Source: Escherichia coli (lineage in GTDB: Bacteria > Pseudomonadota > Gammaproteobacteria > Enterobacterales > Enterobacteriaceae). Taken from it: DNA of 64,000 nucleotides. The notes beneath the pieces are model-generated. The model did not search any database and had not been told where the DNA came from. It saw only the letters and a list, made by a program, of their open reading frames with translations. Location: assembly GCF_030013595.1 (NCBI RefSeq), contig NZ_CP122768.1; one strand, written 5' to 3'. Below, one piece after another: positions 2,142 to 26,887 of the stretch. The position numbers and the translations under genes were made by a program. The first letter of the stretch is position 1. Every line of letters begins with the position of its first letter.

Positions 2142-3522
2142 ATGCCCATCCTTTTAGCATCTCAGCCTTCGAACCACCCTCTGAGATGCAGTTCATCAGA
2201 TACCTGAACATCCCCTTGTGATATTGACAAAACGTTGAACGACTCCTATCACCGACAGGCTCACCCTGTACACTTATGTTCTGGCATGGATCTGAACCAC
2301 AAAATGGTTGATATGCACATGTATCACAACCTGGCAGAGCAAAATTGAACGATGAACTCAATACTGCGTTATAGTAAGGACTATCAGAAAATGATAGCGT
2401 CTTAACTTCACCCGCACTGAACTCCGTTTCAGGATTCACCTTCTGCAACATACGGCTCTCATCGCTACCATATACTCGACCGTCATAATTGAAAAGAATA
2501 CTGTTAAGCACGACTCCACTTGGAGACTTTAAATCCGCATAACCACTAAAACCGGGATTGAAGATCCTTTTCAGATGAATGGAGGCCGAATGTTCCACAA
2601 CCCTTATCCCTTCATTATTAATCTTAAGGATTTCATCTATCAACGAGGCATAGAAGCTGAAGTATTCGTCCATAGAAAAGGTGAAAGAAGCTTTTTGTGC
2701 AAACCCATAGGGACTAACAGGTCGGATAAACATGTCCTTGAGACCAAGAGACAAGTGAGCCTGAACAATCGATTCAGGACGTCTGATAAGCTCTTTAGTA
2801 ACTGTAGTAACCGTTGCAACGCGGCCAGCACCTAAAGAGTGTTTGATAGCCTCTACCCCTGACACTGTTCTACTGTACGCAAGCCCACGACCAAGAATTC
2901 GATTACTGTTGTGAACAACTTCCTCACCATCAAGCGACACAGAGAACGTTATGTTCCGGTCTCTCGACCATTCAATCATATCCTCATTCAAGACAGACAG
3001 ACTTGATGCCACCACCATCTCAAAATTGGTTCTTCCCAGCGTTTCAGCACATTGATCATAGATGCTCTGAATTAAATCAAACCGCAAGAGAGGCTCCCCA
3101 CCCTGTATCTCTATTTTGTAAGGTGGCGTTGATAGTTTTTTAATAGCCGAAATAATATCGGGGATGAGCTCAGGATTTAGGTCGTAACCTGAGGCATTAA
3201 CAGAAGCTCTACTAACCTGGCAATACTTGCATGTATGGTCACAACGTAATGTGGGTACAATCATGAAAATTGGCCTGACAGCCAGTTCATTCATCAATCG
3301 TTTTGCAAAAGCAGAACTTAAAGCATAGGGAGTTATAGCAGATGAGCTTTCACTGGTTATGAAAAGCTTACTTTCTAGCACGTTTGATTGCTCCGAACTA
3401 ATTCGCTCATCAGAAAGATCAATAAGGTCTTGCTCACCAATGAAATGATGAAAACCTGCAAGGTTGCTTATAAACACCTGTCCATTAGGCAATCTGTCAA
3501 AATTAAATGGCATCAATTCCAT
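2134..3522 (-). CDS. hxsB: HxsB-like radical SAM / SPASM-domain maturase (462 aa)
   Basis: CX3CX2C motif CDHTCKYC. C-terminal Cys cluster PGCDTCAYQPFCGSDPCQN...FCQYH is typical of SPASM/twitch auxiliary-cluster domains. Its start overlaps the hxsD stop (TAATG). Confidence 0.8.
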   Translation of the reverse strand: MELMPFNFDRLPNGQVFISNLAGFHHFIGEQDLIDLSDERISSEQSNVLESKLFITSESSSAITPYALSSAFAKRLMNELAVRPIFMIVPTLRCDHTCKYCQVSRASVNASGYDLNPELIPDIISAIKKLSTPPYKIEIQGGEPLLRFDLIQSIYDQCAETLGRTNFEMVVASSLSVLNEDMIEWSRDRNITFSVSLDGEEVVHNSNRILGRGLAYSRTVSGVEAIKHSLGAGRVATVTTVTKELIRRPESIVQAHLSLGLKDMFIRPVSPYGFAQKASFTFSMDEYFSFYASLIDEILKINNEGIRVVEHSASIHLKRIFNPGFSGYADLKSPSGVVLNSILFNYDGRVYGSDESRMLQKVNPETEFSAGEVKTLSFSDSPYYNAVLSSSFNFALPGCDTCAYQPFCGSDPCQNISVQGEPVGDRSRSTFCQYHKGMFRYLMNCISEGGSKAEMLKGWAYV

Positions 3523-18431: not shown

Positions 18432-19245
18432 GGTTTACCCCCTTGCTGACTGGTTTAACCTGCGCCCTGACGTGATTTACGTGACGGGCGAATTTCTGCT
18501 CCCACTGAATCTGCGTGAACACTTTCCCCTCCGCTGCCCAGTAGTCCCGGAAGGCTGCAAATTCAGCTGGTGTAAATTCCGGCTCAGGCAGAGCCACTCC
18601 CCACAGAGCAGCCCGTCGTCGAAAATCCGGCGACGGATGCCAGCCATCGGTCATCGGAAATTTCCCGATGGGTTCGCTCATGCCGTCCAGATATTCGGGC
18701 TCCGGTGTCTGCGATGGCGTACCGTTCGACTCACTGGTCGTAGCTCTCTCGCGCACGCGCGCGTTATGTGTGGGGTTTAATTCTTTATCTGTATCTTTAT
18801 CTGTCGTGACTCGTCGTGACATGTCGTGACATATGCGTGACTCGTCGTGACACCCCTCATTCTGTTTTCGTAATTTTTCCCTCTCGCGCTGCGCTCTCTT
18901 GCGCTCTGCCGGGGATTTCGCGGTTTGTGAAACGTTGCCATTGTCCTCTTTCAGTACCTGGCGTTTTTCCCATCCAGTGATTAAATCACCATCAAGTACC
19001 CGCCCCTGCATCGTCTGCAAAATTGAATCAATTACCTCTTCTGTCACGTCGAGCGCACTTGCCAAATCTTCTGTCGTGACATCAATGTGACCTCGCGTGA
19101 CATTTCGTGACGCGCTCACCAGGAGGTGGATATACACTGCCATCACTGTTGCAATTGGCTGCCCTGACACCCTGGCAATTGTTCGCCACTTAGGGTCATT
19201 TGGCATGTCATGCCATAATCTGAGCCAAGCGTTAGCCATACTCAC
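18220..19245 (-). CDS. Replication initiator (O-like function) containing the origin iterons (341 aa)
   Basis: N-terminal wHTH-like region (MANAWLRLWHDMPNDPKWRTIARVSG...). Two clusters of CGTGAC iterons lie inside the gene. Sits between the ydaT-like and P-like genes. Its 3' 212 nt overlap the P-like ORF. Confidence 0.65.
   Translation of the reverse strand: MSMANAWLRLWHDMPNDPKWRTIARVSGQPIATVMAVYIHLLVSASRNVTRGHIDVTTEDLASALDVTEEVIDSILQTMQGRVLDGDLITGWEKRQVLKEDNGNVSQTAKSPAERKRAQREREKLRKQNEGCHDESRICHDMSRRVTTDKDTDKELNPTHNARVRERATTSESNGTPSQTPEPEYLDGMSEPIGKFPMTDGWHPSPDFRRRAALWGVALPEPEFTPAEFAAFRDYWAAEGKVFTQIQWEQKFARHVNHVRAQVKPVSKGVNHAAAPGGTASRAVQEIRAAREQWERENGFISDGNGLEAVGTHGGGLFEPLDPEERGRTFEALDCTDWRDD
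18801..18851. repeat. Origin iteron cluster 1: five tandem ~10-bp repeats NN(G)TCGTGAC, preceded by an AT-rich tandem TCTTTATCTGT x2
   Basis: ctgtcgtgac tcgtcgtgac atgtcgtgac atatgcgtgac tcgtcgtgac, read directly. Confidence 0.65.
19071..19111. repeat. Origin iteron cluster 2: four ~10-bp repeats ending in GTGAC
   Basis: ctgtcgtgac atcaatgtgac ctcgcgtgac atttcgtgac, plus an inverted copy (gtcacg) near 19044. Confidence 0.55.
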
Positions 19246-19310
19246 CTCTTCTGATACCGAATCTTTTTACTCACGAGTTGCCGGAAGTGATTCGATATGG
19301 CTATTGTCAG

Positions 19311-19736
19311 TCAATGTACTGCCACAGCATTTCCTGCCGGGCCACCACGGTTCATCTGATTGAAACCGGCGATTGCCACTGCGACAAAATCATCAGCGTC
19401 TCTCACCAGTCGCTCCCGCGTCTCCACCAGCTCCCGAAAATAAGCTGAACTGTGGCTGCGCATTCTGGCCACCAGCAAAGGTGGCATTGCCTTTTCGATC
19501 GCTGGTAACAACGTCTGAATTTTTTCAACTGCATCAGGGGTGTCTTTCTCTACCCAGCGGAAAATTTTCTGGGTATTGCGAGCCAGGGCTTCCGGATGGC
19601 TATCGTCATACAGTTCAGGAAACGTCATACCCAACTCAAAATAAGCCTGGGTTATTCCAGCTGCTGGAACTTTTTCGCCATCAGGACGCGCCCAGGCATT
19701 CATCGCCATGCGGATGTGTTCATGCTTGATTTTCAT
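19311..19736 (-). CDS. ydaT: YdaT-family (CII-like) protein (141 aa)
   Basis: MKIKHEHIRMAMNAWARPDGEK... is as I remember Rac YdaT. Positioned directly after the cro-like gene. Confidence 0.7.
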   Translation of the reverse strand: MKIKHEHIRMAMNAWARPDGEKVPAAGITQAYFELGMTFPELYDDSHPEALARNTQKIFRWVEKDTPDAVEKIQTLLPAIEKAMPPLLVARMRSHSSAYFRELVETRERLVRDADDFVAVAIAGFNQMNRGGPAGNAVAVH

Positions 19737-19758
19737 GAATCATTTGCCTCTTGATGTT

Positions 19759-20055
19759 TCAGGTATGATCAAATGAGGATTTGTTACTGTCATTTAGTTG
19801 CTTCACTGACATATTCTGCGAACAACATGCCGAACGTCGTAAATATGACCAGTCAATATCAGGACGAAGTTCTTCGCACAGAACCTCACCTCTTGTTGCA
19901 CGTTCAATTGCTGGACATCTCTCGGCAGGCAATTGACGTACCCCTTTGATCCATTGATTTACGCTTGGAGGTGATACACCTAAAAGCCTAGCCATTGCTG
20001 ATTGCCCACCGACAACAGCACAAGCTTGCTTGAATGAATAGTTCTCTTTTTTCAT
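19759..20055 (-). CDS. ydaS: Cro-like HTH regulator, YdaS family (98 aa)
   Basis: MKKENYSFKQACAVVGGQSAMARLLGVSPPSVNQWIKG contains an HTH. Divergent from the repressor gene across an operator-rich 123-bp region. Confidence 0.75.
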   Translation of the reverse strand: MKKENYSFKQACAVVGGQSAMARLLGVSPPSVNQWIKGVRQLPAERCPAIERATRGEVLCEELRPDIDWSYLRRSACCSQNMSVKQLNDSNKSSFDHT

Positions 20056-20081
20056 CGAATGAACTCCAAAAACACACAGAA

Positions 20082-20150
20082 ATATTAGGCGACGCCTAAC
20101 ACAAATGTCAATAGGCTGTGCCTAATGCGATAAAGGTAGGAATTGCCTAA
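20082..20150. promoter_or_regulatory. OR-like region: three operators TTAGGC-N3-GCCTAA (20085-20099, 20111-20125, 20136-20150) overlapping a minus-strand pR (TTGACA 20106-20111, TAATAT 20082-20087)
   Basis: Palindromic half-sites read directly. The promoter hexamers are near-consensus with an 18-nt spacer. Confidence 0.65.
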
Positions 20151-20178
20151 TACAATGAGCATAGGAGAATATTAAGCA

Positions 20179-20655
20179 ATGCTTAGTGGTAAAGACTTAG
20201 GCCGAGCGATAGAGCAGGCCATTAACAAAAAAATCGCATCGGGATCCGTCAAATCAAAGGCGGAGGTCGCACGCCACTTCAAAGTCCAACCACCATCAAT
20301 TTATGACTGGATTAAGAAAGGCTCTATAAGTAAAGATAAACTTCCAGAATTATGGCGTTTCTTTTCTGATGTTGTTGGTCCAGAGCATTGGGGGCTTAAC
20401 GAATACCCCATACCAACCCCCACCAATTCAGATACAAAAAGTGAACTTTTAGATATAAACAACCTTTATCAAGCAGCCTCTGATGAAATAAGAGCGATTG
20501 TAGCTTTCCTGTTATCTGGAAATGCTACAGAACCAGATTGGGTTGACCACGATGTTCGCGCCTACATAGCAGCGATGGAAATGAAAGTGGGTAAGTATCT
20601 GAAAGCTCTAGAATCTGAACGGAAAAGCCAGAACATCACAAAAACTGGAACTTAA
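20179..20655 (+). CDS. Prophage repressor, RacR-like HTH protein without a recognisable S24 peptidase domain (158 aa)
   Basis: HTH segment KSKAEVARHFKVQPPSIYDWIKKG. Divergent from the cro-like gene. RBS AGGAGA. AT-rich. Confidence 0.7.
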   Translation: MLSGKDLGRAIEQAINKKIASGSVKSKAEVARHFKVQPPSIYDWIKKGSISKDKLPELWRFFSDVVGPEHWGLNEYPIPTPTNSDTKSELLDINNLYQAASDEIRAIVAFLLSGNATEPDWVDHDVRAYIAAMEMKVGKYLKALESERKSQNITKTGT

Positions 20656-20750
20656 ACTTATATGGTCTGACGGAAAACTCCTGGATTCCGTTATTTAACC
20701 CCCCATCACTTTCTGCTGTCGCCATCACCTATTAGGTTACGATCAAAACA

Positions 20751-20793
20751 TTAGGCATAGCCTATTGACAATCAATTAGGCATTACCTATAGT
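20751..20793 (+). promoter_or_regulatory. OL/pL-like region: consensus promoter TTGACA (20765-20770)-17 nt-TATAGT (20788-20793) overlapped by two TTAGGC-N3-(G/A)CCTAT operators (20751-20765, 20776-20790)
   Basis: Read directly. Same half-site as the OR operators. Confidence 0.65.
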
Positions 20794-20970
20794 TCCAGCA
20801 TACCACCCACCCCGCCCCACAGAACGCAGGGCAATACTTCGAGTTACCAGGCAGTGGTCAGGGGTTAAGTAGCCAGCCCGAGGCGTAAGAACATGACGGC
20901 AGGGTTCAACTTTAACTATGCAGCAGGTTTTTGTTCCGCCACCCCGGCGTTAAGGGGAAATGAGGTCAGC

Positions 20971-21126
20971 ATGGATACTATCGATCTTGGCAACAGCGAA
21001 TCTCTGGTATGTGGCGTGTTCCCCAACCAGGACGGCACGTTCACTGCGATGACGTATACCAAAAGCAAAACGTTTAAAACCGAATCTGGCGCGCGTCGCT
21101 GGCTGGAAAGAAACTCAGGTGAGTGA
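20971..21126 (+). CDS. Small early-left protein (51 aa), YdaF-like by size and position
   Basis: MDTIDLGNSESLVCGVFPNQDGTFTAMTYTKSKTFKTESGARRWLERNSGE. RBS GAGG. First ORF after pL. Confidence 0.5.
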   Translation: MDTIDLGNSESLVCGVFPNQDGTFTAMTYTKSKTFKTESGARRWLERNSGE

Positions 21127-21127
21127 T

Positions 21128-21256
21128 ATGGATTTCGACACAATCATGGAAAAGGCTTACGAAGAATACTTCGAAGGCCTTGCCGAAGGCGAAGAAGCTC
21201 TCAGCTTCAGTGAGTTTAAACAGGCGCTTTCCAGCTCGGCAAAATCTAACGGCTGA
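21128..21256 (+). CDS. Small acidic early-left protein (42 aa)
   Basis: MDFDTIMEKAYEEYFEGLAEGEEALSFSEFKQALSSSAKSNG. Its ATG lies 1 nt after the previous stop (TGATATG). Too short for the ORF track. Confidence 0.4.
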   Translation: MDFDTIMEKAYEEYFEGLAEGEEALSFSEFKQALSSSAKSNG

Positions 21257-21285
21257 TAAGCGAAGCAGCACCGCGAGGAATCAGT

Positions 21286-21504
21286 ATGCAGAAACGAGAA
21301 CCCGTCATCATCGCGCCAGACTATACCGATGATGAACTTTATGAGTGGATGCGCCAGAAAATTAATGCAGCGCAGGATCTGAAATGGGCCAATGAAGCCA
21401 GGGCTAAGCAGGCTGAAAATCTGTCCGCTCTGGAGCAGGATATCACCAGGCTGGAAAAAGCAGCGGCATTAAGCATTGCCAGAATGATTTCATACCCGCG
21501 TTAA
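21286..21504 (+). CDS. Hypothetical early-left protein (72 aa)
   Basis: ORF with a coiled-coil-like sequence. Confidence 0.5.
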   Translation: MQKREPVIIAPDYTDDELYEWMRQKINAAQDLKWANEARAKQAENLSALEQDITRLEKAAALSIARMISYPR

Positions 21505-21639
21505 TAGCTAACCAACGAAGCTAAGGTTGGTAATTAAGGAGTTCTCCACGGGTCAGGTGGAGTGCGTGCGCCGGACACGGGTGAGCATCCGGTACGTTCT
21601 TTAAAAATCTGGATAGTCCCAACTTATTTAAACGGTTAA

Positions 21640-22071
21640 TTATCTTGAGTTCATCCAGAACTTATTATTGCAAGCGAGGCAAAAAGTACGAAAATGAGCA
21701 TCAAAGCGCATTATTTCCATTGGCTGAAGTACAGATATTACCTTTTTTCCAAAACATTGTGGGCAAAGATACACAGTTATCTCAGTATCGCCTATAAATT
21801 GCTTCTTGGAATATACAAGGGTTCCAGAATCAAGCTTGTTAAGCTTGTAACCTTCCGCCTGTCGCTGAAAATCTTCTGTCTCTGCAATTTTTGCTTTGAG
21901 ATGCATTATCTCTTCATCACGAAAGCGGATCGCATCGCAAAGAGAGAAGCATTCCGCCTGAAGCGTGATTAGTTTGTTCTGAAGTTCAATAGTTGCGGCT
22001 TTAACTTCTGCATCCGTTTTTGCGTCATTAATAACCTTAGCGAGACCAGCTGTCTCCTTTATCGCAGCCAT
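21640..22071 (-). CDS. Coiled-coil plus C-terminal zinc-ribbon protein of unknown function (143 aa), antisense to the early-left operon at the sieB-equivalent position
   Basis: MAAIKETAGLAKVINDAKTDAEVKAATIELQNKLITLQAE...CPQC...CLAC. About 35% GC in a spot count. Own TATAAT promoter. Start chosen at ATG 22071. Confidence 0.55.
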   Translation of the reverse strand: MAAIKETAGLAKVINDAKTDAEVKAATIELQNKLITLQAECFSLCDAIRFRDEEIMHLKAKIAETEDFQRQAEGYKLNKLDSGTLVYSKKQFIGDTEITVYLCPQCFGKKVISVLQPMEIMRFDAHFRTFCLACNNKFWMNSR

Positions 22072-22111
22072 AGCCGCTGACAGTTCTGCTATCACGTTGA
22101 GTACTCTTCTC

Positions 22112-22156
22112 GTTGTTGGGGATATCCGGATTATACAAATTTCTTGTTGTTGGGGA
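22112..22156 (-). promoter_or_regulatory. Candidate promoter of the 21640-22071 gene: -10 TATAAT (22130-22135) bracketed by two perfect 11-nt direct repeats TCCCCAACAAC (22112-22122 and 22146-22156)
   Basis: Read directly. The repeats sit at about +1 and -35, like operators. Confidence 0.45.
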
Positions 22157-22286
22157 ATAACAGGAACCACCTCGCCTGACGTGGTTAAAAGCAGGCACAC
22201 AACGCGAAAGCGTACGGCGAGGTAGCTGGTTCATAGATAGCCTGTCGTTAAATTTTCGTCGACCGTGCACTTCCGGTTGTGGCAAT

Positions 22287-22457
22287 CCGCGAAATGGCGC
22301 GGCGGTAAGTATGGCTGGGTTATCCTTACCCCATTAGTGGCACCGGGTTGTCAGGTTGACCATACGCTTAAGTGACAACCCCGCTGCAACAACCCATGTT
22401 GATTACCTTTTGGCGGGTATCCGTTTTTTGTTTTCCCTTGTGATACCCGCCCTTTTT
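22287..22457 (+). ncRNA. Candidate structured non-coding RNA or cis-acting RNA element: three consecutive hairpins plus an intrinsic terminator
   Basis: Hairpins CCGCG/CGCGG (22287-22302), GGTAAG/CTTACC (22304-22330) and GGGTTGTCA/TGACAACCC (22345-22381), then a 30-nt A/U-rich linker and the terminator at 22412-22457. No credible ORF. No promoter identified. Confidence 0.3.
22412..22457 (+). terminator. Intrinsic terminator within the early-left transcription unit
   Basis: 10-bp stem GGCGGGTATC/GATACCCGCC (20-nt loop) followed by CTTTTT. Confidence 0.6.
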
Positions 22458-22461
22458 AAAG

Positions 22462-22623
22462 TGAATTTTGTGATGCGGTGAATGCGGCTCAGCGCACGCG
22501 GAACAGTTAAAAAGGCCAGTTGACTTCCGTATTGGTTCTTATGGGTGGGTTCTCTGTATCCGGCGTTAATTATTAACTGGTTAACGTCACCTGGAGGCAC
22601 CAGGCACCGCATCACAAAATTCA
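22462..22623. repeat. Perfect 19-bp inverted repeat TGAATTTTGTGATGCGGTG (22462-22480 / 22605-22623) enclosing 124 bp
   Basis: Read directly. The right arm ends 5 nt before the GAGGA RBS of the 22641 gene. The interior contains the palindrome GTTAATTATTAAC and a CCTGG-N5-CCAGG hairpin. Confidence 0.7.
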
Positions 22624-22640
22624 TTGTTGAGGATGCGATA

Positions 22641-22823
22641 ATGGAAACGTTATTACCAAACGTCAATACGTCTGAAGGTTGTTTTGAAATTGGTGTCAGA
22701 ATCAGTAACCCTGTATTTACTGAAGATGCCATTAATAAGAGAAAACACGAACGGGAGCTATTAAATCAAATATGCATTGTTTCAATGCTGGCCCGTTTAC
22801 GCCTGATGCAAAAAGGACGATGA
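22641..22823 (+). CDS. Small early-left protein (60 aa)
   Basis: METLLPNVNTSEGCFEIGVRISNPVFTEDAINKRKHERELLNQICIVSMLARLRLMQKGR. RBS GAGGA. Recalls a conserved lambdoid/Rac-type early ORF, but I cannot name it. Confidence 0.5.
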   Translation: METLLPNVNTSEGCFEIGVRISNPVFTEDAINKRKHERELLNQICIVSMLARLRLMQKGR

Positions 22824-22825
22824 CA

Positions 22826-23029
22826 ATGAATACAGTATTTGCACTCGTTCTGACGGTTTTTCTTAATACAGGCGAGCCAGTCGATCTTGTTATTGGTATA
22901 CATGACTCAATGAAAGAATGCATGGCTGCCGCAGCGGAACAGAAAATTCCCGGCAACTGTTATCCGGTTGATAAAGTTATTCGCATGGACAATAACGAAA
23001 TCCCGGCAGGACTTAAAACAGCACCGTAA
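22826..23029 (+). CDS. DUF1482-like small protein (67 aa)
   Basis: MNTVFALVLTVFLNTGEPVDLVIGIHDSMKECMAAAAEQKIPGNCYPVD. This family sits upstream of ExoVIII-like genes in Rac-type prophages (from memory). Confidence 0.55.
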   Translation: MNTVFALVLTVFLNTGEPVDLVIGIHDSMKECMAAAAEQKIPGNCYPVDKVIRMDNNEIPAGLKTAP

Positions 23030-23109
23030 TTAATATCCGGTTTCATTTTTATATGCCAGCAATGGCAGGGATTTGTTCACCCTTAAATCTGTAATGAGGT
23101 TAAAACAAA

Positions 23110-25581
23110 ATGAGTAAAGTCTTTATTTGCGCCGCCATTCCGGACGAACAGGCAATAAAGGAAGAAGGTGCAGTCGCTGTAGCCACTGCCATTGAAGCCG
23201 GCGACGAACGCCGCGCCCGAGCCAAATTTACCTGGCAATTCCTGGAGCAATATCCGGCTGCTCAGGACTGCGCTTATAAATTTCTTGTTTGCGAGGATAA
23301 ACCCGGCATGCCCCGCCCTGCCATCGACTCCTGGGATACCGAATATATGCAGGAAAACTGCTGGGATGAGGAATCCGCTTCCTTTATTCCGGTCGAACCA
23401 GAATCCGATCCGATGAACGTCAATTTTGACAAGCTGTCCCCTGAAGTACAGAACGCGGTCCTGGTTAAGTTCGACACATGTGAAAACATCACCGTTGATA
23501 TGGTTATTAGCGCACAGGAATTGTTGCAGGAAGACATGGCAACATTCGACGGACATATCGTTGAAGCGTTGATGAAAATGCCAGAAGTTAACGCCATGTA
23601 TCCGGAGCTTAAGTTGCACGCCATTGGGTGGGTTAAGCATAAATGTATTCCTGGTGCTAAATGGCCCGAAATTCAGGCAGAGATGCGCATCTGGAAAAAA
23701 CGTCGCGAAGGTGAACGCAAGGAAACCGGAAAATACACGTCTGTTGTTGATCTCGCCCGCGCCAGAGCCAATCAACAGTACACTGACAATTCAACAGGAA
23801 AAATCAGCCCGGTCATTGCTGCCACTCATCGCGAATACAAGCAGACATGGAAAACACTGGATGACGAACTGGCCTACGCTCTCTGGCCTGGTGATGTGGA
23901 TGCCGGAAACATTGACGGCAGCATCCATCGCTGGGCAAAAAATGAAGTTATCGACAACGACCGCGAAGACTGGAAGCGTATCTCGGCATCAATGCGCAAA
24001 CAGCCTGATGCCCTTCGCTACGACCGCCAGACTATTTTTGGCCTTGTCCGTGAACGTCCGATCGACATTCACAAAGACCCTGTGGCACTGAACAAATACA
24101 TTACTGAATACCTGACTACAAAGGGCGTGTTTGAAGATGAAGGAAGAAATCAGAGCGCAACTGATACTCTCTCGTCGCCAGTACCAGAAACTGATGCAGT
24201 GGAAACGGCAATTCCGGACAACGAAAAAACCGAATGCAAAGTGGAAGTCGAACCATCTGTAGAGCGTGAGGGGCCGTTCTACTTCCTCTTCACCGACAAG
24301 GATGGCGAAAAATATGGTCGCGCAAACAAACTTTCTGGTCTGAATAAGGCGCTGACTGCAGGGGCTACTGAAATCACGAAAGAAGAATATTTTGCCCGTA
24401 AAAACGGTACATACTCAGGTTCACAACAAAATACTGGTGCATCTGACACGACCGCACAACCAGAGCCGGTAAAAGTTACCGCTGACGAAGTAAACAAAAT
24501 TATGCAGGCAGCCAATATCAGCCAGCCTGACGCCGATAAGTTGCTTGCTGTATCACGTGGTGAATTTGTTGCAGGGATTAGCGACCCGAATGATCCGAAA
24601 TGGGTGAAGGGGATTGAAACCCGCGATTCAGTGAATCAGAACCAGCAAGAAACGGAACAGAACGACCAGAAAGCGGAACAAAACAGCCCAAATGCGTTAC
24701 AAAACGAGCCAGAAACGAAACAACCTGAGCCAGTAGCGCAACAGGAAGCGGAAAAAGTCTGCACCGCCTGCGGTCAGACCGGCGGCGGCAACTGCCCTGA
24801 TTGTGGTGCGGTGATGGGCGACGCAACATACCAGGAAACATTCGATGACAAGAACCAGGTTGAAGTTCAGGAAGACGATTCGGAGAAAATGGAAGGCGCT
24901 GAACATCCACACAAAGAGAATGCTGGCAGCGCTCAGGATCACGCCAGCGATAGTGAAACTGGCGAGACGGCAGATCCCTTAATTACGGTGAACGGTCATC
25001 ACGTTATCACATCCACCAGCAGGACGTGTGACCATCTAATGATCGACCTTGAAACCATGGGAAAAAATCCTGATGCCCCGATTATCTCAATAGGTGCAAT
25101 ATTTTTCGATCCGCAAACCGGAGATATGGGACCGGAATTTAGTAAGACTATCGATCTGGAAACTGCTGGCGGAGTCATTGATCGGGACACCATTAAATGG
25201 TGGCTTAAGCAATCACGCGAAGCGCAATCTGCCATTATGACCGATGAAATCCCGTTAGATGATGCACTGTTACAATTGCGGGAATTTATCGACGAAAACT
25301 CCGGTGAATTTTTTGTTCAGGTCTGGGGAAATGGAGCCAACTTCGACAACACGATTTTGCGCCGTTCATACGAACGGCAGGGGATCCCCTGCCCGTGGCG
25401 TTACTACAACGATCGCGATGTACGCACAATCGTTGAGCTGGGGAAAGCCATAGACTTCGATGCCAGAACGGCTATTCCATTCGAAGGTGAGCGCCATAAT
25501 GCACTTGATGACGCCCGTTACCAGGCAAAATACGTTTCAGCAATCTGGCAAAAACTGATCCCGAATCCGGTTGATTTTTAA
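23110..25581 (+). CDS. Exodeoxyribonuclease VIII-like protein with a C-terminal DEDDh 3'-5' exonuclease domain (823 aa)
   Basis: N-terminus MSKVFICAAIPDE... matches the prophage 'exodeoxyribonuclease 8' annotation class as I remember it. Acidic/Gln-rich linker. Zinc ribbon CTACGQTGGGNCPDCG. C-terminal DLET...NGANFD...H..LDDA exonuclease motifs. Confidence 0.75.
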   Translation: MSKVFICAAIPDEQAIKEEGAVAVATAIEAGDERRARAKFTWQFLEQYPAAQDCAYKFLVCEDKPGMPRPAIDSWDTEYMQENCWDEESASFIPVEPESDPMNVNFDKLSPEVQNAVLVKFDTCENITVDMVISAQELLQEDMATFDGHIVEALMKMPEVNAMYPELKLHAIGWVKHKCIPGAKWPEIQAEMRIWKKRREGERKETGKYTSVVDLARARANQQYTDNSTGKISPVIAATHREYKQTWKTLDDELAYALWPGDVDAGNIDGSIHRWAKNEVIDNDREDWKRISASMRKQPDALRYDRQTIFGLVRERPIDIHKDPVALNKYITEYLTTKGVFEDEGRNQSATDTLSSPVPETDAVETAIPDNEKTECKVEVEPSVEREGPFYFLFTDKDGEKYGRANKLSGLNKALTAGATEITKEEYFARKNGTYSGSQQNTGASDTTAQPEPVKVTADEVNKIMQAANISQPDADKLLAVSRGEFVAGISDPNDPKWVKGIETRDSVNQNQQETEQNDQKAEQNSPNALQNEPETKQPEPVAQQEAEKVCTACGQTGGGNCPDCGAVMGDATYQETFDDKNQVEVQEDDSEKMEGAEHPHKENAGSAQDHASDSETGETADPLITVNGHHVITSTSRTCDHLMIDLETMGKNPDAPIISIGAIFFDPQTGDMGPEFSKTIDLETAGGVIDRDTIKWWLKQSREAQSAIMTDEIPLDDALLQLREFIDENSGEFFVQVWGNGANFDNTILRRSYERQGIPCPWRYYNDRDVRTIVELGKAIDFDARTAIPFEGERHNALDDARYQAKYVSAIWQKLIPNPVDF

Positions 25582-25647
25582 TGTTCAACCCTGATCGCCG
25601 TCCCCGAATTATATTGGCGGCGGTCATGCTGTAAGGCACGTGACCAC

Positions 25648-25899
25648 ATGTACGAATTAACTCTATCGCCAGCAGAGATTCAAGAGATCACGAAATACGA
25701 GCGATACACAAAACAGCAACACCAGTTAAGGCTGCACGGTATCCCATTTGTAATCGGTCCTAAAAACGAACCAATAGTTCTTCGCAGGGATATTCCACAC
25801 GGACTGACTACGATGCCAAAAGCACCTGAACTGGTTTCCGCTGAACCCGATTTTGAGGCGCTGAACAATGGGAAGACCAAGAAAAAACAAAAAAGATAA
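25648..25899 (+). CDS. xis: Excisionase-like protein (83 aa)
   Basis: Small basic protein immediately upstream of int and overlapping it by 32 nt. The call is positional. Confidence 0.55.
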   Translation: MYELTLSPAEIQEITKYERYTKQQHQLRLHGIPFVIGPKNEPIVLRRDIPHGLTTMPKAPELVSAEPDFEALNNGKTKKKQKR

Positions 25900-26887
25900 T
25901 GCACTACCACCGCGTGTTAGATCGAATGGTTACAGTTACGTATGGAAACCCGAAGGAAGCACAAGAACTATAGGGCTCGGAAGAGTGCGGGAAACCAGCG
26001 TAGCTAAAGTCTGGCAAAATTATGAGCTGGAAAAAGCAAAACTCCACAACATAATGACAGTAGCTAAATTATGGCACATGTTTATGGACTCCCCTGCATT
26101 TACAGAACTGGCCCCCCGAACCCAAAAAGATTATCGGCAACATCAAAGGGCATTGTTGGCAGTATTCGGAAAAGTGCTTGCTGATAATGTAAAAATTGAA
26201 CAGGTAAGAATTTTCATGGATAAGCGAGGACTTGAGAGCAAGACCCAAGCAAACCATGAACTGGCAAGTCTGAGCCGTGTATACGGATGGGGATATGAGC
26301 GTGGGTATGTGAAAAATAATCCATGCAAAGGAGTCAGAAAATTCACACTTAAAGCCCGTACTGTTTACATCACCGATGAACAGTATGCTGCAATATATGC
26401 GGAAGCAATTCCACAGTTACGTATTGCAATGGAGATATCCTATCTTTGTGCGGCAAGGCTCGGTGATGTACTCGAGCTGAAATGGCAGGATATTATGGAG
26501 AAAGGGATTTACATTGAGCAAAACAAGACCGGCACTAAACAAATCAAGGAATGGTCTCCGCGATTACGTACGGCGATCCAGTTAGCCCGAAATGTATCTT
26601 CCGGCACATGCGAGTATGTGATCAACACAACCAAAGGCGGGAAGGTAATAGCCAAGACGCTGAACAACTGGTGGAATCAGGCTAAACGTGCAGCCGAGCA
26701 AAAAGCCGGCGTTCCGTTTGGGTGCAACTTCCATGACATAAAAGCCAAAGGGATTTCAGATTACGAAGGCAGCAGTCGCGACAAACAAATTTTCAGTGGA
26801 CACAAAACAGAAAATCAGGTGTTGATTTACGATCGTAAAACCAAAATAACACCAACACTGGATTTGCCGCTTGTGGTCAGTAAGTAG
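25868..26887 (+). CDS. int: Tyrosine-recombinase integrase (339 aa)
   Basis: Catalytic-domain landmarks ...CAARLGDVLELKW..., ...FHDIKAKG..., ...SGHKTENQVLIYDR. Its 3' end is 140 bp from the tRNA att fragment. Confidence 0.9.
   Translation: MGRPRKNKKDNALPPRVRSNGYSYVWKPEGSTRTIGLGRVRETSVAKVWQNYELEKAKLHNIMTVAKLWHMFMDSPAFTELAPRTQKDYRQHQRALLAVFGKVLADNVKIEQVRIFMDKRGLESKTQANHELASLSRVYGWGYERGYVKNNPCKGVRKFTLKARTVYITDEQYAAIYAEAIPQLRIAMEISYLCAARLGDVLELKWQDIMEKGIYIEQNKTGTKQIKEWSPRLRTAIQLARNVSSGTCEYVINTTKGGKVIAKTLNNWWNQAKRAAEQKAGVPFGCNFHDIKAKGISDYEGSSRDKQIFSGHKTENQVLIYDRKTKITPTLDLPLVVSK

Follow-up and report, generated by a model that had tools for sequence, protein, structure and literature searches.

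Rip1 (ring interacting pore 1) is a prophage-encoded protein that is non-toxic when present alone (review PMC13434031 on Patel et al., Nature 651:1060, 2026). As described in this review, mutants that escape Rip1 are altered in the portal protein in phages of Pseudomonas and in the small terminase in those of E. coli, and 12 Rip1 molecules form a ring around an 11-mer ring of the small terminase. The C-terminal half of Rip1 touches the terminase, the N-terminal amphipathic helices make a pore, and cells that harbor Rip1 lyse prematurely upon infection; homologues are widespread in proteobacterial prophages (PMC13434031). A meeting report and a preprint agree with this picture. Here, we describe a Rip1-like gene on the minus strand of a 64,000-nucleotide (nt) stretch of Escherichia (E.) coli DNA (contig NZ_CP122768.1 of assembly GCF_030013595.1; this whole stretch is referred to as the window), where it is preceded by a leader homologous to that of another prophage gene, sieB.

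The sieB gene of phages P22 and lambda encodes a membrane protein with the PF14163 domain. Reviews of the work of Ranade & Poteete (1993) state that an antisense RNA called sas pairs with the sieB mRNA and switches its translation, such that P22 escapes its own exclusion; in P22, an internal start within sieB also gives a second product, Esc. The sequence of the P22 sas RNA, 127 nt in length, is found in a 2026 small-RNA study (PMC13397905). The window gene resembles sieB in being an abortive-infection-type prophage gene that is located antisense within the early-left operon, and also in its leader, which displays the same repeat/-10/repeat promoter architecture and the same 32-nt upstream element. 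In contrast, the protein is unrelated to SieB.

Taken as a whole, the data are best explained by a Rip1-type abortive-infection gene that is expressed from a sieB-type promoter and controlled by a sas-like antisense RNA, an explanation to which we assign a probability of about 0.75. An earlier reading, made from the letters of the window only (the original prediction), had proposed a lysogen-expressed anti-phage or exclusion gene. This defence reading is supported by the homology to Rip1, itself a prophage-encoded defence.

Family and structure of the protein

A search of the PDB with the single protein sequence (phmmer) aligned residues 5-146 with chain L of entry 9oox, "ring interacting pore 1 (Rip1)" (E 1.8e-12), and a profile of 42 family sequences matched the same chain at E 9.8e-21. 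Entry 9oox is an electron cryomicroscopy (cryo-EM) structure of the Rip1 of HK446 bound to a phage protein. With BLASTP, the window protein aligned end to end (~95% of the length) with HK446 gp37 (E 1e-17) and JBD30 gp30 (E 3e-18), both 28% identical and both sharing its CxxC...CxxC pattern. A tblastn search of phage genomes also gave full-length, 28%-identical matches, i.e., to HK446 gp37 and to gene 30 of the Mu-like Pseudomonas phages (JBD30, DMS3). Judged by these homologies, the window gene is a divergent new member of the known Rip1 family. The statement in the original prediction that no family could be recognized is out of date, the Rip1 family having been published in 2026.

The AlphaFold2 model (predicted local distance difference test score 91.4) is composed of two helices, residues 2-24 and 28-80, and a beta-rich domain, residues 84-150, and is confident through the last strand. 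This predicted arrangement, in which a long helix at the N-terminus leads to a beta-rich domain at the C-terminus, matches the solved Rip1 structure. The four cysteines C111, C114, C139 and C142 (CPQC...CLAC) are invariant in 42 of 42 family members. The long N-terminal helix and C-terminal zinc ribbon that had been read from the sequence are thus both seen. Structure prediction and searches for defence systems had been proposed at that time as checks; the former yielded the Rip1-like fold, the latter, in the form of PADLOC, no match.

Pfam searches with the window protein gave only coiled-coil noise, including no match to PF14163 (SieB), and no transmembrane segments were found in the protein. 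In PHROGs it is assigned to phrog_1244, "unknown function", and a Foldseek search of BFVD returned one weak, unnamed match. About 150 close relatives were found by database search, all from Enterobacterales and all labelled hypothetical. An exhaustive profile search with a cutoff of E<=1e-3 returned 2654 cluster representatives; of the best 150 among these 2654, nearly all are 120-210 residues long. Within the enterobacterial subfamily, pairs of sequences are on average 64% identical over the N-terminal 95 residues and 41% identical over the C-terminal part, a division that is consistent with a conserved N-terminal effector and a variable C-terminal sensor. Another residue, Cys49 (codon at about 21949-21951 on the minus strand, in QAECFSL), is located inside the long helix and is invariant in this subfamily; it is absent from HK446 Rip1 and JBD30 gp30.

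The similarity to the characterized Rip1 proteins (HK446 gp37/HK620 p16 and the inter-terminase gene of Casadabanvirus) thus comprises full-length homology, the helix and zinc-ribbon fold, the same four cysteines, a comparable length (151 residues here, 164 in the characterized members) and the arrangement as a single prophage gene opposite to its neighbors. Unlike these proteins, the window protein belongs to a separate enterobacterial subfamily, with the N-terminus MIAELSAAM... and the additional invariant Cys49, at 28% identity. The slots also differ: the window gene resides between ydfC and the DicF region of a dicB operon, whereas HK446 gp37, which is similar to HK620 p16, adjoins N in antisense to pL, and gene 30 of the JBD30-type phages is found between two terminase genes, on the other strand. 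In every context examined, i.e., the window, other Qin-like prophages, xis/S24 repressor, yfdP/cI, beside N (HK446) and between terminase genes (JBD30), the Rip1 relatives are opposite to their neighbors, which is the typical placement of a moron. The other Qin-like prophages harbor their relative in the same ydfC/dicB slot with a protein that is only 53% identical.

The Tab/anti-Tab system of Pseudomonas phage JBD26 is a further point of comparison. Tab is also a self-promoted, minus-strand prophage defence gene in the same inter-terminase slot as JBD30 Rip1, and it also targets a late structural protein. Unlike Rip1, it belongs to another protein family (according to the Tab paper, JBD26 and JBD24 are the only carriers), it blocks tail assembly and forms no pore, and self-protection is provided by a protein, anti-Tab. 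Zip and Tab of JBD26 were considered as relatives of the window protein and rejected, because the literature shows them to be different proteins.

The open reading frame (ORF) ends with its stop codon at 21640, and the coding sequence at 21640-22095 (minus strand) comprises 151 codons plus the stop, with a GTG start. The GTG at 22095 coincides with the start column of 26 aligned homologues (N-terminus MIAELSAAM; MITELSAA in three, and MVDISAAF, one column later, in the homologue P0006). It is also the start chosen by the NCBI annotation pipeline PGAP for the corresponding protein, WP_046788612.1, in a 99.9% identical E. coli locus. Because both lines of evidence agree, a length of 151 residues is most likely, and the ATG at 22071 is then the internal codon 9. 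The original prediction was correct in placing an ORF on this strand, antisense to the early-left operon, and its length of 143 residues is replaced by that of the family-conserved start. Its estimate of about 35% G+C is too low: the ORF has 41.2% (37.6% in the 3' half, 44.7% in the 5' half), which is still AT-rich compared with the upstream flank (51.5%), the downstream flank (45.3%) and the whole window (49.4%).

The promoter and its direct repeats

A perfect -10 hexamer, TATAAT, is found at 22130-22135 on the minus strand, between two exact copies of the 11-nt direct repeat TCCCCAACAAC on the same strand, at 22146-22156 (repeat 1, about -35) and at 22112-22122 (repeat 2, at the predicted 5' end of the mRNA). 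This arrangement, as first described from the sequence, is confirmed. No third mismatch-free copy of TCCCCAACAAC is present in the 64 kb of the window.

In the RefSeq record of P22, the sieB promoter and a "sieB RNA start site" are annotated on homologous sequence. Here, repeat 1 is located at the upstream edge of the promoter (~-35), the two repeats flank the -10, and the RNA begins at the base that precedes repeat 2. The window TATAAT aligns with the -10 of this promoter and window repeat 1 is homologous to the P22 repeat 1 at the 5' edge of the annotated promoter. Alignment to the annotated P22 start, 29727, gives a predicted transcription start near 22123 (an A on the minus strand, 7 nt past the -10). 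The P22 annotation therefore bears out the positions of about -35 and +1 that had been given to the repeats.

The same leader precedes sieB in both P22 (L241, 2652-2760) and lambda (L240, 495-606), as well as the rip1 gene of HK446. Read 5' to 3' on the sense strand, it opens with a 32-nt element and repeat 1; a -10-like hexamer follows after about 10 nt and repeat 2 after about 7 nt more, ahead of a Shine-Dalgarno (SD) sequence and the start codon. The sense-strand consensus of the 32-nt element, GCCTG.CTTTT.ACCAC.TCAGGC..GGTGG, is near-invariant. In the alignment with P22, lambda and HK446, the window leader displays all the parts of the sieB-type cassette, i.e., the element, repeat 1, the -10 and repeat 2 at +1, at a spacing of 33-34 nt. 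The window promoter is, by this comparison, homologous to the P22/lambda sieB promoter. Together with the orientation of the gene, this homology points to an own promoter, from which the gene would be expressed apart from the lytic operons, in line with the proposal of a dedicated, regulated promoter at a sieB-like position. The sieB-equivalence that had been suggested for the locus is literal at the level of the cassette, i.e., the same expression cassette carries different cargo, and the HK446 Rip1 homologue is found in the exact lambda sieB slot beside N, in the opposite orientation.

The ~110 nt 5' of the start codon are better conserved than the coding sequence, and the leader recurs ahead of homologues in quite different prophages, including that of HK446, where the protein is 28% identical. 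In about 60 unique homologous leaders, repeat pairs are found at a constant spacing of 33-34 nt, with five sub-type repeat sequences (CCCCAACAAC, CCCCTACAG, TTCCACAGTCAA, CCCCAATGCAA and CCCCCACAA); at any one locus, both copies mostly have the same sequence. Because the pairs recur in this manner, the repeats are not a product of chance. The window repeat is CCCCAACAAC, whereas that of HK446 rip1 is CCCCTACAG. At two loci ahead of Rip1-like genes (L075 and L082), the 32-nt element is missing and one repeat copy is kept beside the SD sequence, which shows that partial replacement of the cassette is possible. Upstream of JBD30 gp30, nothing equivalent to the enterobacterial cassette is found.

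Conserved structure on the antisense strand

In reverse complement, the published P22 sas RNA corresponds exactly to the sieB start codon, repeat 2, the -10, repeat 1 and the 32-nt element; the plus strand of the window aligns with this RNA at 22086-22213. A sas-like antisense RNA is thus predicted at these positions (plus strand, ends taken from P22 sas), where it would span the rip1 start codon, the 5' untranslated region (UTR), the promoter and a conserved 3' element. Rfam contains no family that matches the leader or the antisense RNA.

Folding and covariation identify an 11-bp antisense hairpin, UUCUUGUUGUU-GGGG-AAUAACAGGAA, at 22141-22166 on the plus strand, in which the complement of repeat 1 constitutes the 5' arm and the GGGG loop. 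The minimum free energy of the 46-nt segment that bears this hairpin is -10.1 kcal/mol for the plus (antisense) strand and -2.2 kcal/mol for the minus (sense) strand. Of 57 unique type-B leaders, 53 are more stable as the antisense strand (Wilcoxon p 3e-10), as are 32 of 40 leaders of type A, i.e., those without direct repeats (p 0.004), and in type B the G-U pairs number 92 on the antisense and 41 on the sense strand. When 25 leaders, among them the P22 and lambda ones, are aligned, both sides change in 7 of the 11 hairpin pairs, and pairing is seen in 89.8% of the cells as compared to ~40% when the partner column is slid. Because the annotated P22 sense start lies downstream of the conserved structure, and because of the stability asymmetry and the covariation of the hairpin, these data indicate that the structure lies on the antisense strand.

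The 32-nt element itself, at 22165-22196 on the plus strand, is near-invariant in all contexts and contains two interleaved stems, CCAC 22167-22170/GUGG 22181-22184 and GCCUG 22174-22178/CAGGC 22192-22196. These stems (22167-22196) may form an H-type pseudoknot at the 3' end of the antisense RNA. Compensatory changes in them are few: CCGC/GCGG in two lineages and GCCUU/AAGGC in one.

The repeats could, instead of being RNA elements, be DNA operators for a sequence-specific regulator, i.e., the zinc-ribbon protein itself or a host factor. Their positions at about -35 and +1 are the classic ones for operators, the fixed spacing of 33-34 bp corresponds to about three helical turns, and both copies change together between sub-types. 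However, this concerted change is not strict, as the copies in L009 and L029 are non-identical. Furthermore, the same repeat is found with unrelated cargo: CCCCTACAG precedes SieB as well as HK446 Rip1, and CCCCAACAAC precedes Rip1 as well as several unrelated ORFs, which makes autoregulation by a cargo-encoded protein unlikely. Nor does a protein operator require the covarying hairpin, rich in G-U pairs, into which the complement of repeat 1 folds in the antisense strand. We therefore consider operators to be an unlikely explanation of the repeats, and interpret them as parts of a promoter and sas-like RNA module.

The same leader with other genes

The leader is not restricted to sieB and rip1. 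The 32-nt element and leader precede at least 31 unrelated families of small proteins in enterobacterial prophages (IMG/VR loci L120-L273, clustered by their downstream ORFs), and the cassettes are mostly opposite to both neighbors. A pattern scan of viral contigs (at least 120 contigs, at least 121 sites) found a Rip1-like gene downstream at 12 among the 121 matches listed. The cargo families include one that is Rip1-like and one true SieB (PF14163, 79.5 bits); none of the others among the ten largest or longest families tested had a significant Pfam or PADLOC assignment. SieB and Rip1 are the only known cargo families, and both are abortive-infection defences. In the literature searched, which was incomplete, no paper was found that describes the shared cassette.

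In type-A leaders, a variable hairpin rich in compensatory changes is located directly before the SD sequence. In loci such as L120, L124, L131, L140 and L199, the sequence directly following GGTGGTA displays one hairpin, with at least eight different, always complementary, stem sequences; the loops are CA-rich (CTCACACA, CACCACAG) and the hairpin ends at the SD sequence. A possible extended -10, TGgTATNCT, overlaps the 5' arm of this hairpin, and a candidate sigma-70 promoter inside the element of type-A leaders, TT[A/C]ACC-16 nt-TGgTATNCT, is plausible. A separate observation concerns L180 (about 4043 onward), where the shared cassette carries cargo c84, a protein of 136 residues with a coiled coil followed by CPNC...CSFC; this cargo is possibly a very distant member of the Rip1-like proteins, not linked to the family by BLAST.

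These data raise the question of whether the sieB/sas module is a portable, two-stranded cassette, in which one strand may hold a constitutive promoter and the other may encode an antisense RNA with a pseudoknot-like end. Such a combination of promoter and structured antisense RNA would provide "lysogen on, lytic off" control for any cargo. We regard this generalization as tentative, its odds being somewhat below even.

Location in the prophage and distribution

At 18-26 kb, the window comprises the immunity region and early-left part of a lambdoid prophage that resembles Qin. The minus strand harbors cro-, cII- and O-like genes, while the plus strand holds, in this order, a cI/DicA-like repressor gene, a promoter, ydfA/B-like small genes, ydfC, the DicF slot and dicB, followed 3' of dicB by a DUF1482 gene and an 823-residue RecE-like exonuclease. 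The early-left (dicB-operon) promoter-like site at 20765-20793 on the plus strand, TTGACA-17-TATAGT, is near-consensus (11/12 matches in a promoter scan), and transcripts that start there would cross the cassette in antisense. The neighbors of the rip1-like gene in the operon are ydfC, upstream at 21286-21504 (plus strand, from the RefSeq annotation of the 99.9% identical locus), and dicB, downstream at about 22641-22823 (plus strand, RefSeq annotation and ORF). The gene had been placed antisense to the early-left operon with small early genes on one side and the exonuclease on the other; this agrees with the gene order, in which ydfC precedes it and the DicF slot, dicB and the RecE-like exonuclease follow. 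The comparison to the sieB position of Rac is not borne out, as the gene is inserted inside a Qin-type dicB operon, in the ydfC/DicF slot.

In phage Tritos, ydfC-DicF-dicB is uninterrupted. Pairwise alignment with this phage delimits an insert of ~600 bp, cassette and cargo, at 21596-22200, which replaces ~43 bp that in Tritos separate the 3' hairpin of ydfC from the DicF precursor region. The corresponding ~43 nt at the "empty" Tritos site (L002, about 3095-3140) include CCCTGAAAAGTCAGAC, which loosely resembles the complement of the 32-nt element and may be a scar of cassette loss.

A query of 1 kb that comprises the cassette, gene and flank is found whole in 58 of 5426 complete E. coli genomes, many of them from swine enterotoxigenic E. 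coli. Partial matches were obtained in 4569 of the 5426 genomes, and these are, as judged by phage matches, mostly to the flank at 22141-22500.

The cassette is located ~200 nt upstream of the DicF slot. Like the predicted sas-like RNA, the DicF small RNA of the Qin dicB operon (RF00039) is a processed small RNA from the same operon and the same precursor transcript. Unlike Qin, the window has no detectable DicF: the RF00039 covariance model had no match at E<=10 in 22060-22640 and none at E<=1 in 19000-26000. The slot at 22396-22462 (plus strand) is instead occupied by a divergent hairpin-terminator sequence, i.e., GGCGGGTATC, a 20-nt U-rich loop, GATACCCGCC and a T-run, while its flanks show conservation with those of Qin and Tritos. 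Of 5426 E. coli genomes, 131 carry this allele (O121 and O55:H7 strains are examples), and no feature is annotated there in the best 8 matches listed. Between the slot and dicB, at 22464-22618 (plus strand), lies the only Rfam match, a sub-threshold one to the Salmonella small RNA STnc100, which scores 33.5 bits where the gathering score is 47 (E 1.4e-5 in a small scan).

Proposed mechanism and its assessment

The mechanism proposed for the window gene builds on the family membership, fold, invariant cysteines, insert boundaries, P22 promoter homology and conserved antisense-strand structure established here, and takes the trigger, the 12-around-11 ring, pore formation and non-toxicity of the protein alone from published work on its relatives. 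In the lysogen, the dicB operon would be repressed and the rip1-like gene transcribed from the sieB-type promoter, starting near 22123. The protein would be harmless alone, as reported for its relatives. Upon infection, when the incoming phage is in late expression, its small terminase or portal would assemble as a ring, around which about 12 Rip1 molecules would dock through their variable C-terminal zinc-ribbon domains. The conserved N-terminal helices would then be bundled into a membrane pore, such that the cell is permeabilized before progeny mature.

When the resident prophage is derepressed, transcription from 20765-20793 would proceed through ydfC on the plus strand and antisense across rip1. 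This read-through would yield a structured, stable sas-like RNA (about 22086-22213) that covers the rip1 promoter, 5' UTR and start codon. By homology to sas, this RNA would probably stop Rip1 synthesis, and thereby limit triggering by the cell's own prophage. The duplicated repeat may allow the GGGG loop of the antisense RNA to contact the C-rich 5' end of the mRNA. We infer by analogy the same behavior for this 28%-identical member, the phages that would be sensed and the sas-like shut-off.

A number of observations weigh against this proposal. The identity to both characterized Rip1 proteins is only 28%, the subfamily is known from sequence alone, and PADLOC, Pfam and NCBIfam have no model that matches the protein family. 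The N-terminal helix is moderately amphipathic, with a maximum hydrophobic moment of 0.34. The mechanistic details of Rip1 used here are those of a review and a meeting report, and they differ from an older account in which JBD30 gp30, counted among the phage-blocking morons, "blocks phage genome injection". With respect to the antisense RNA, the promoter scan found no plus-strand promoter adjoining it, and for this reason it would depend on read-through and processing. The whole 116-nt plus-strand segment folds no better than shuffled sequences (z = -0.2), and the two 3' stems are almost invariant, such that covariation cannot confirm their pairing and scans in which one stem is left free have little power. 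Moreover, no Esc-like internal product is evident in the window gene, unlike in P22 sieB; Met9 (ATG 22071) is common, not invariant, in relatives and is not preceded by an SD sequence. Near-identical E. coli strains also show a partly decayed prophage, with frameshifted exonuclease and integrase genes.

The last observation is relevant to an alternative, namely decay or repurposing of this Rip1 homologue within a cryptic prophage, such that the defence is lost or the protein senses something other than terminase or portal rings. In addition to the frameshifts in neighboring prophage genes, the protein is the shortest one in its subfamily and lacks the C-terminal tail of most relatives, and the C-terminal sensor half is highly divergent. 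Against decay, the ORF is intact, all invariant residues are kept, the structural model is confident through its last strand and the -10 is perfect; copies that are 97-99% identical are found in eight viral contigs and the 58 E. coli genomes. On balance, loss or change of function is quite improbable.

A sense-strand leader, i.e., a 5' UTR in which a riboswitch-like pseudoknot and an SD-sequestering hairpin control translation of the cargo, would fit the interleaved stems with their few compensatory changes and the type-A hairpin, whose 3' arm runs into the SD sequence, but was rejected as very improbable on the grounds that the annotated P22 start is downstream of the element and the hairpin 5' arm, which places both outside the sieB mRNA, that folding is more stable on the antisense strand, where G-U pairs are twice as numerous, and that no riboswitch matches in Rfam and no conserved promoter is found upstream of the 32-nt element (information content <=0.4 bits/position).

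Implications

With the assignment to a Rip1-type gene under a sieB-type promoter, a hypothetical protein of 58 complete E. coli genomes becomes a candidate abortive-infection defence of the Rip1 type. It also places Rip1 in a third kind of prophage slot, i.e., inside the operon of the dicB cell-division inhibitor. If the control by a sas-like RNA is general, it would represent an RNA-based form of prophage self-immunity, by which carriers of suicide genes that are triggered by late phage proteins would survive induction. The cassette could furthermore serve as a sequence tag when mining prophages for undiscovered defence genes, and this shared regulatory cassette is the part of the finding that is most worth pursuing.

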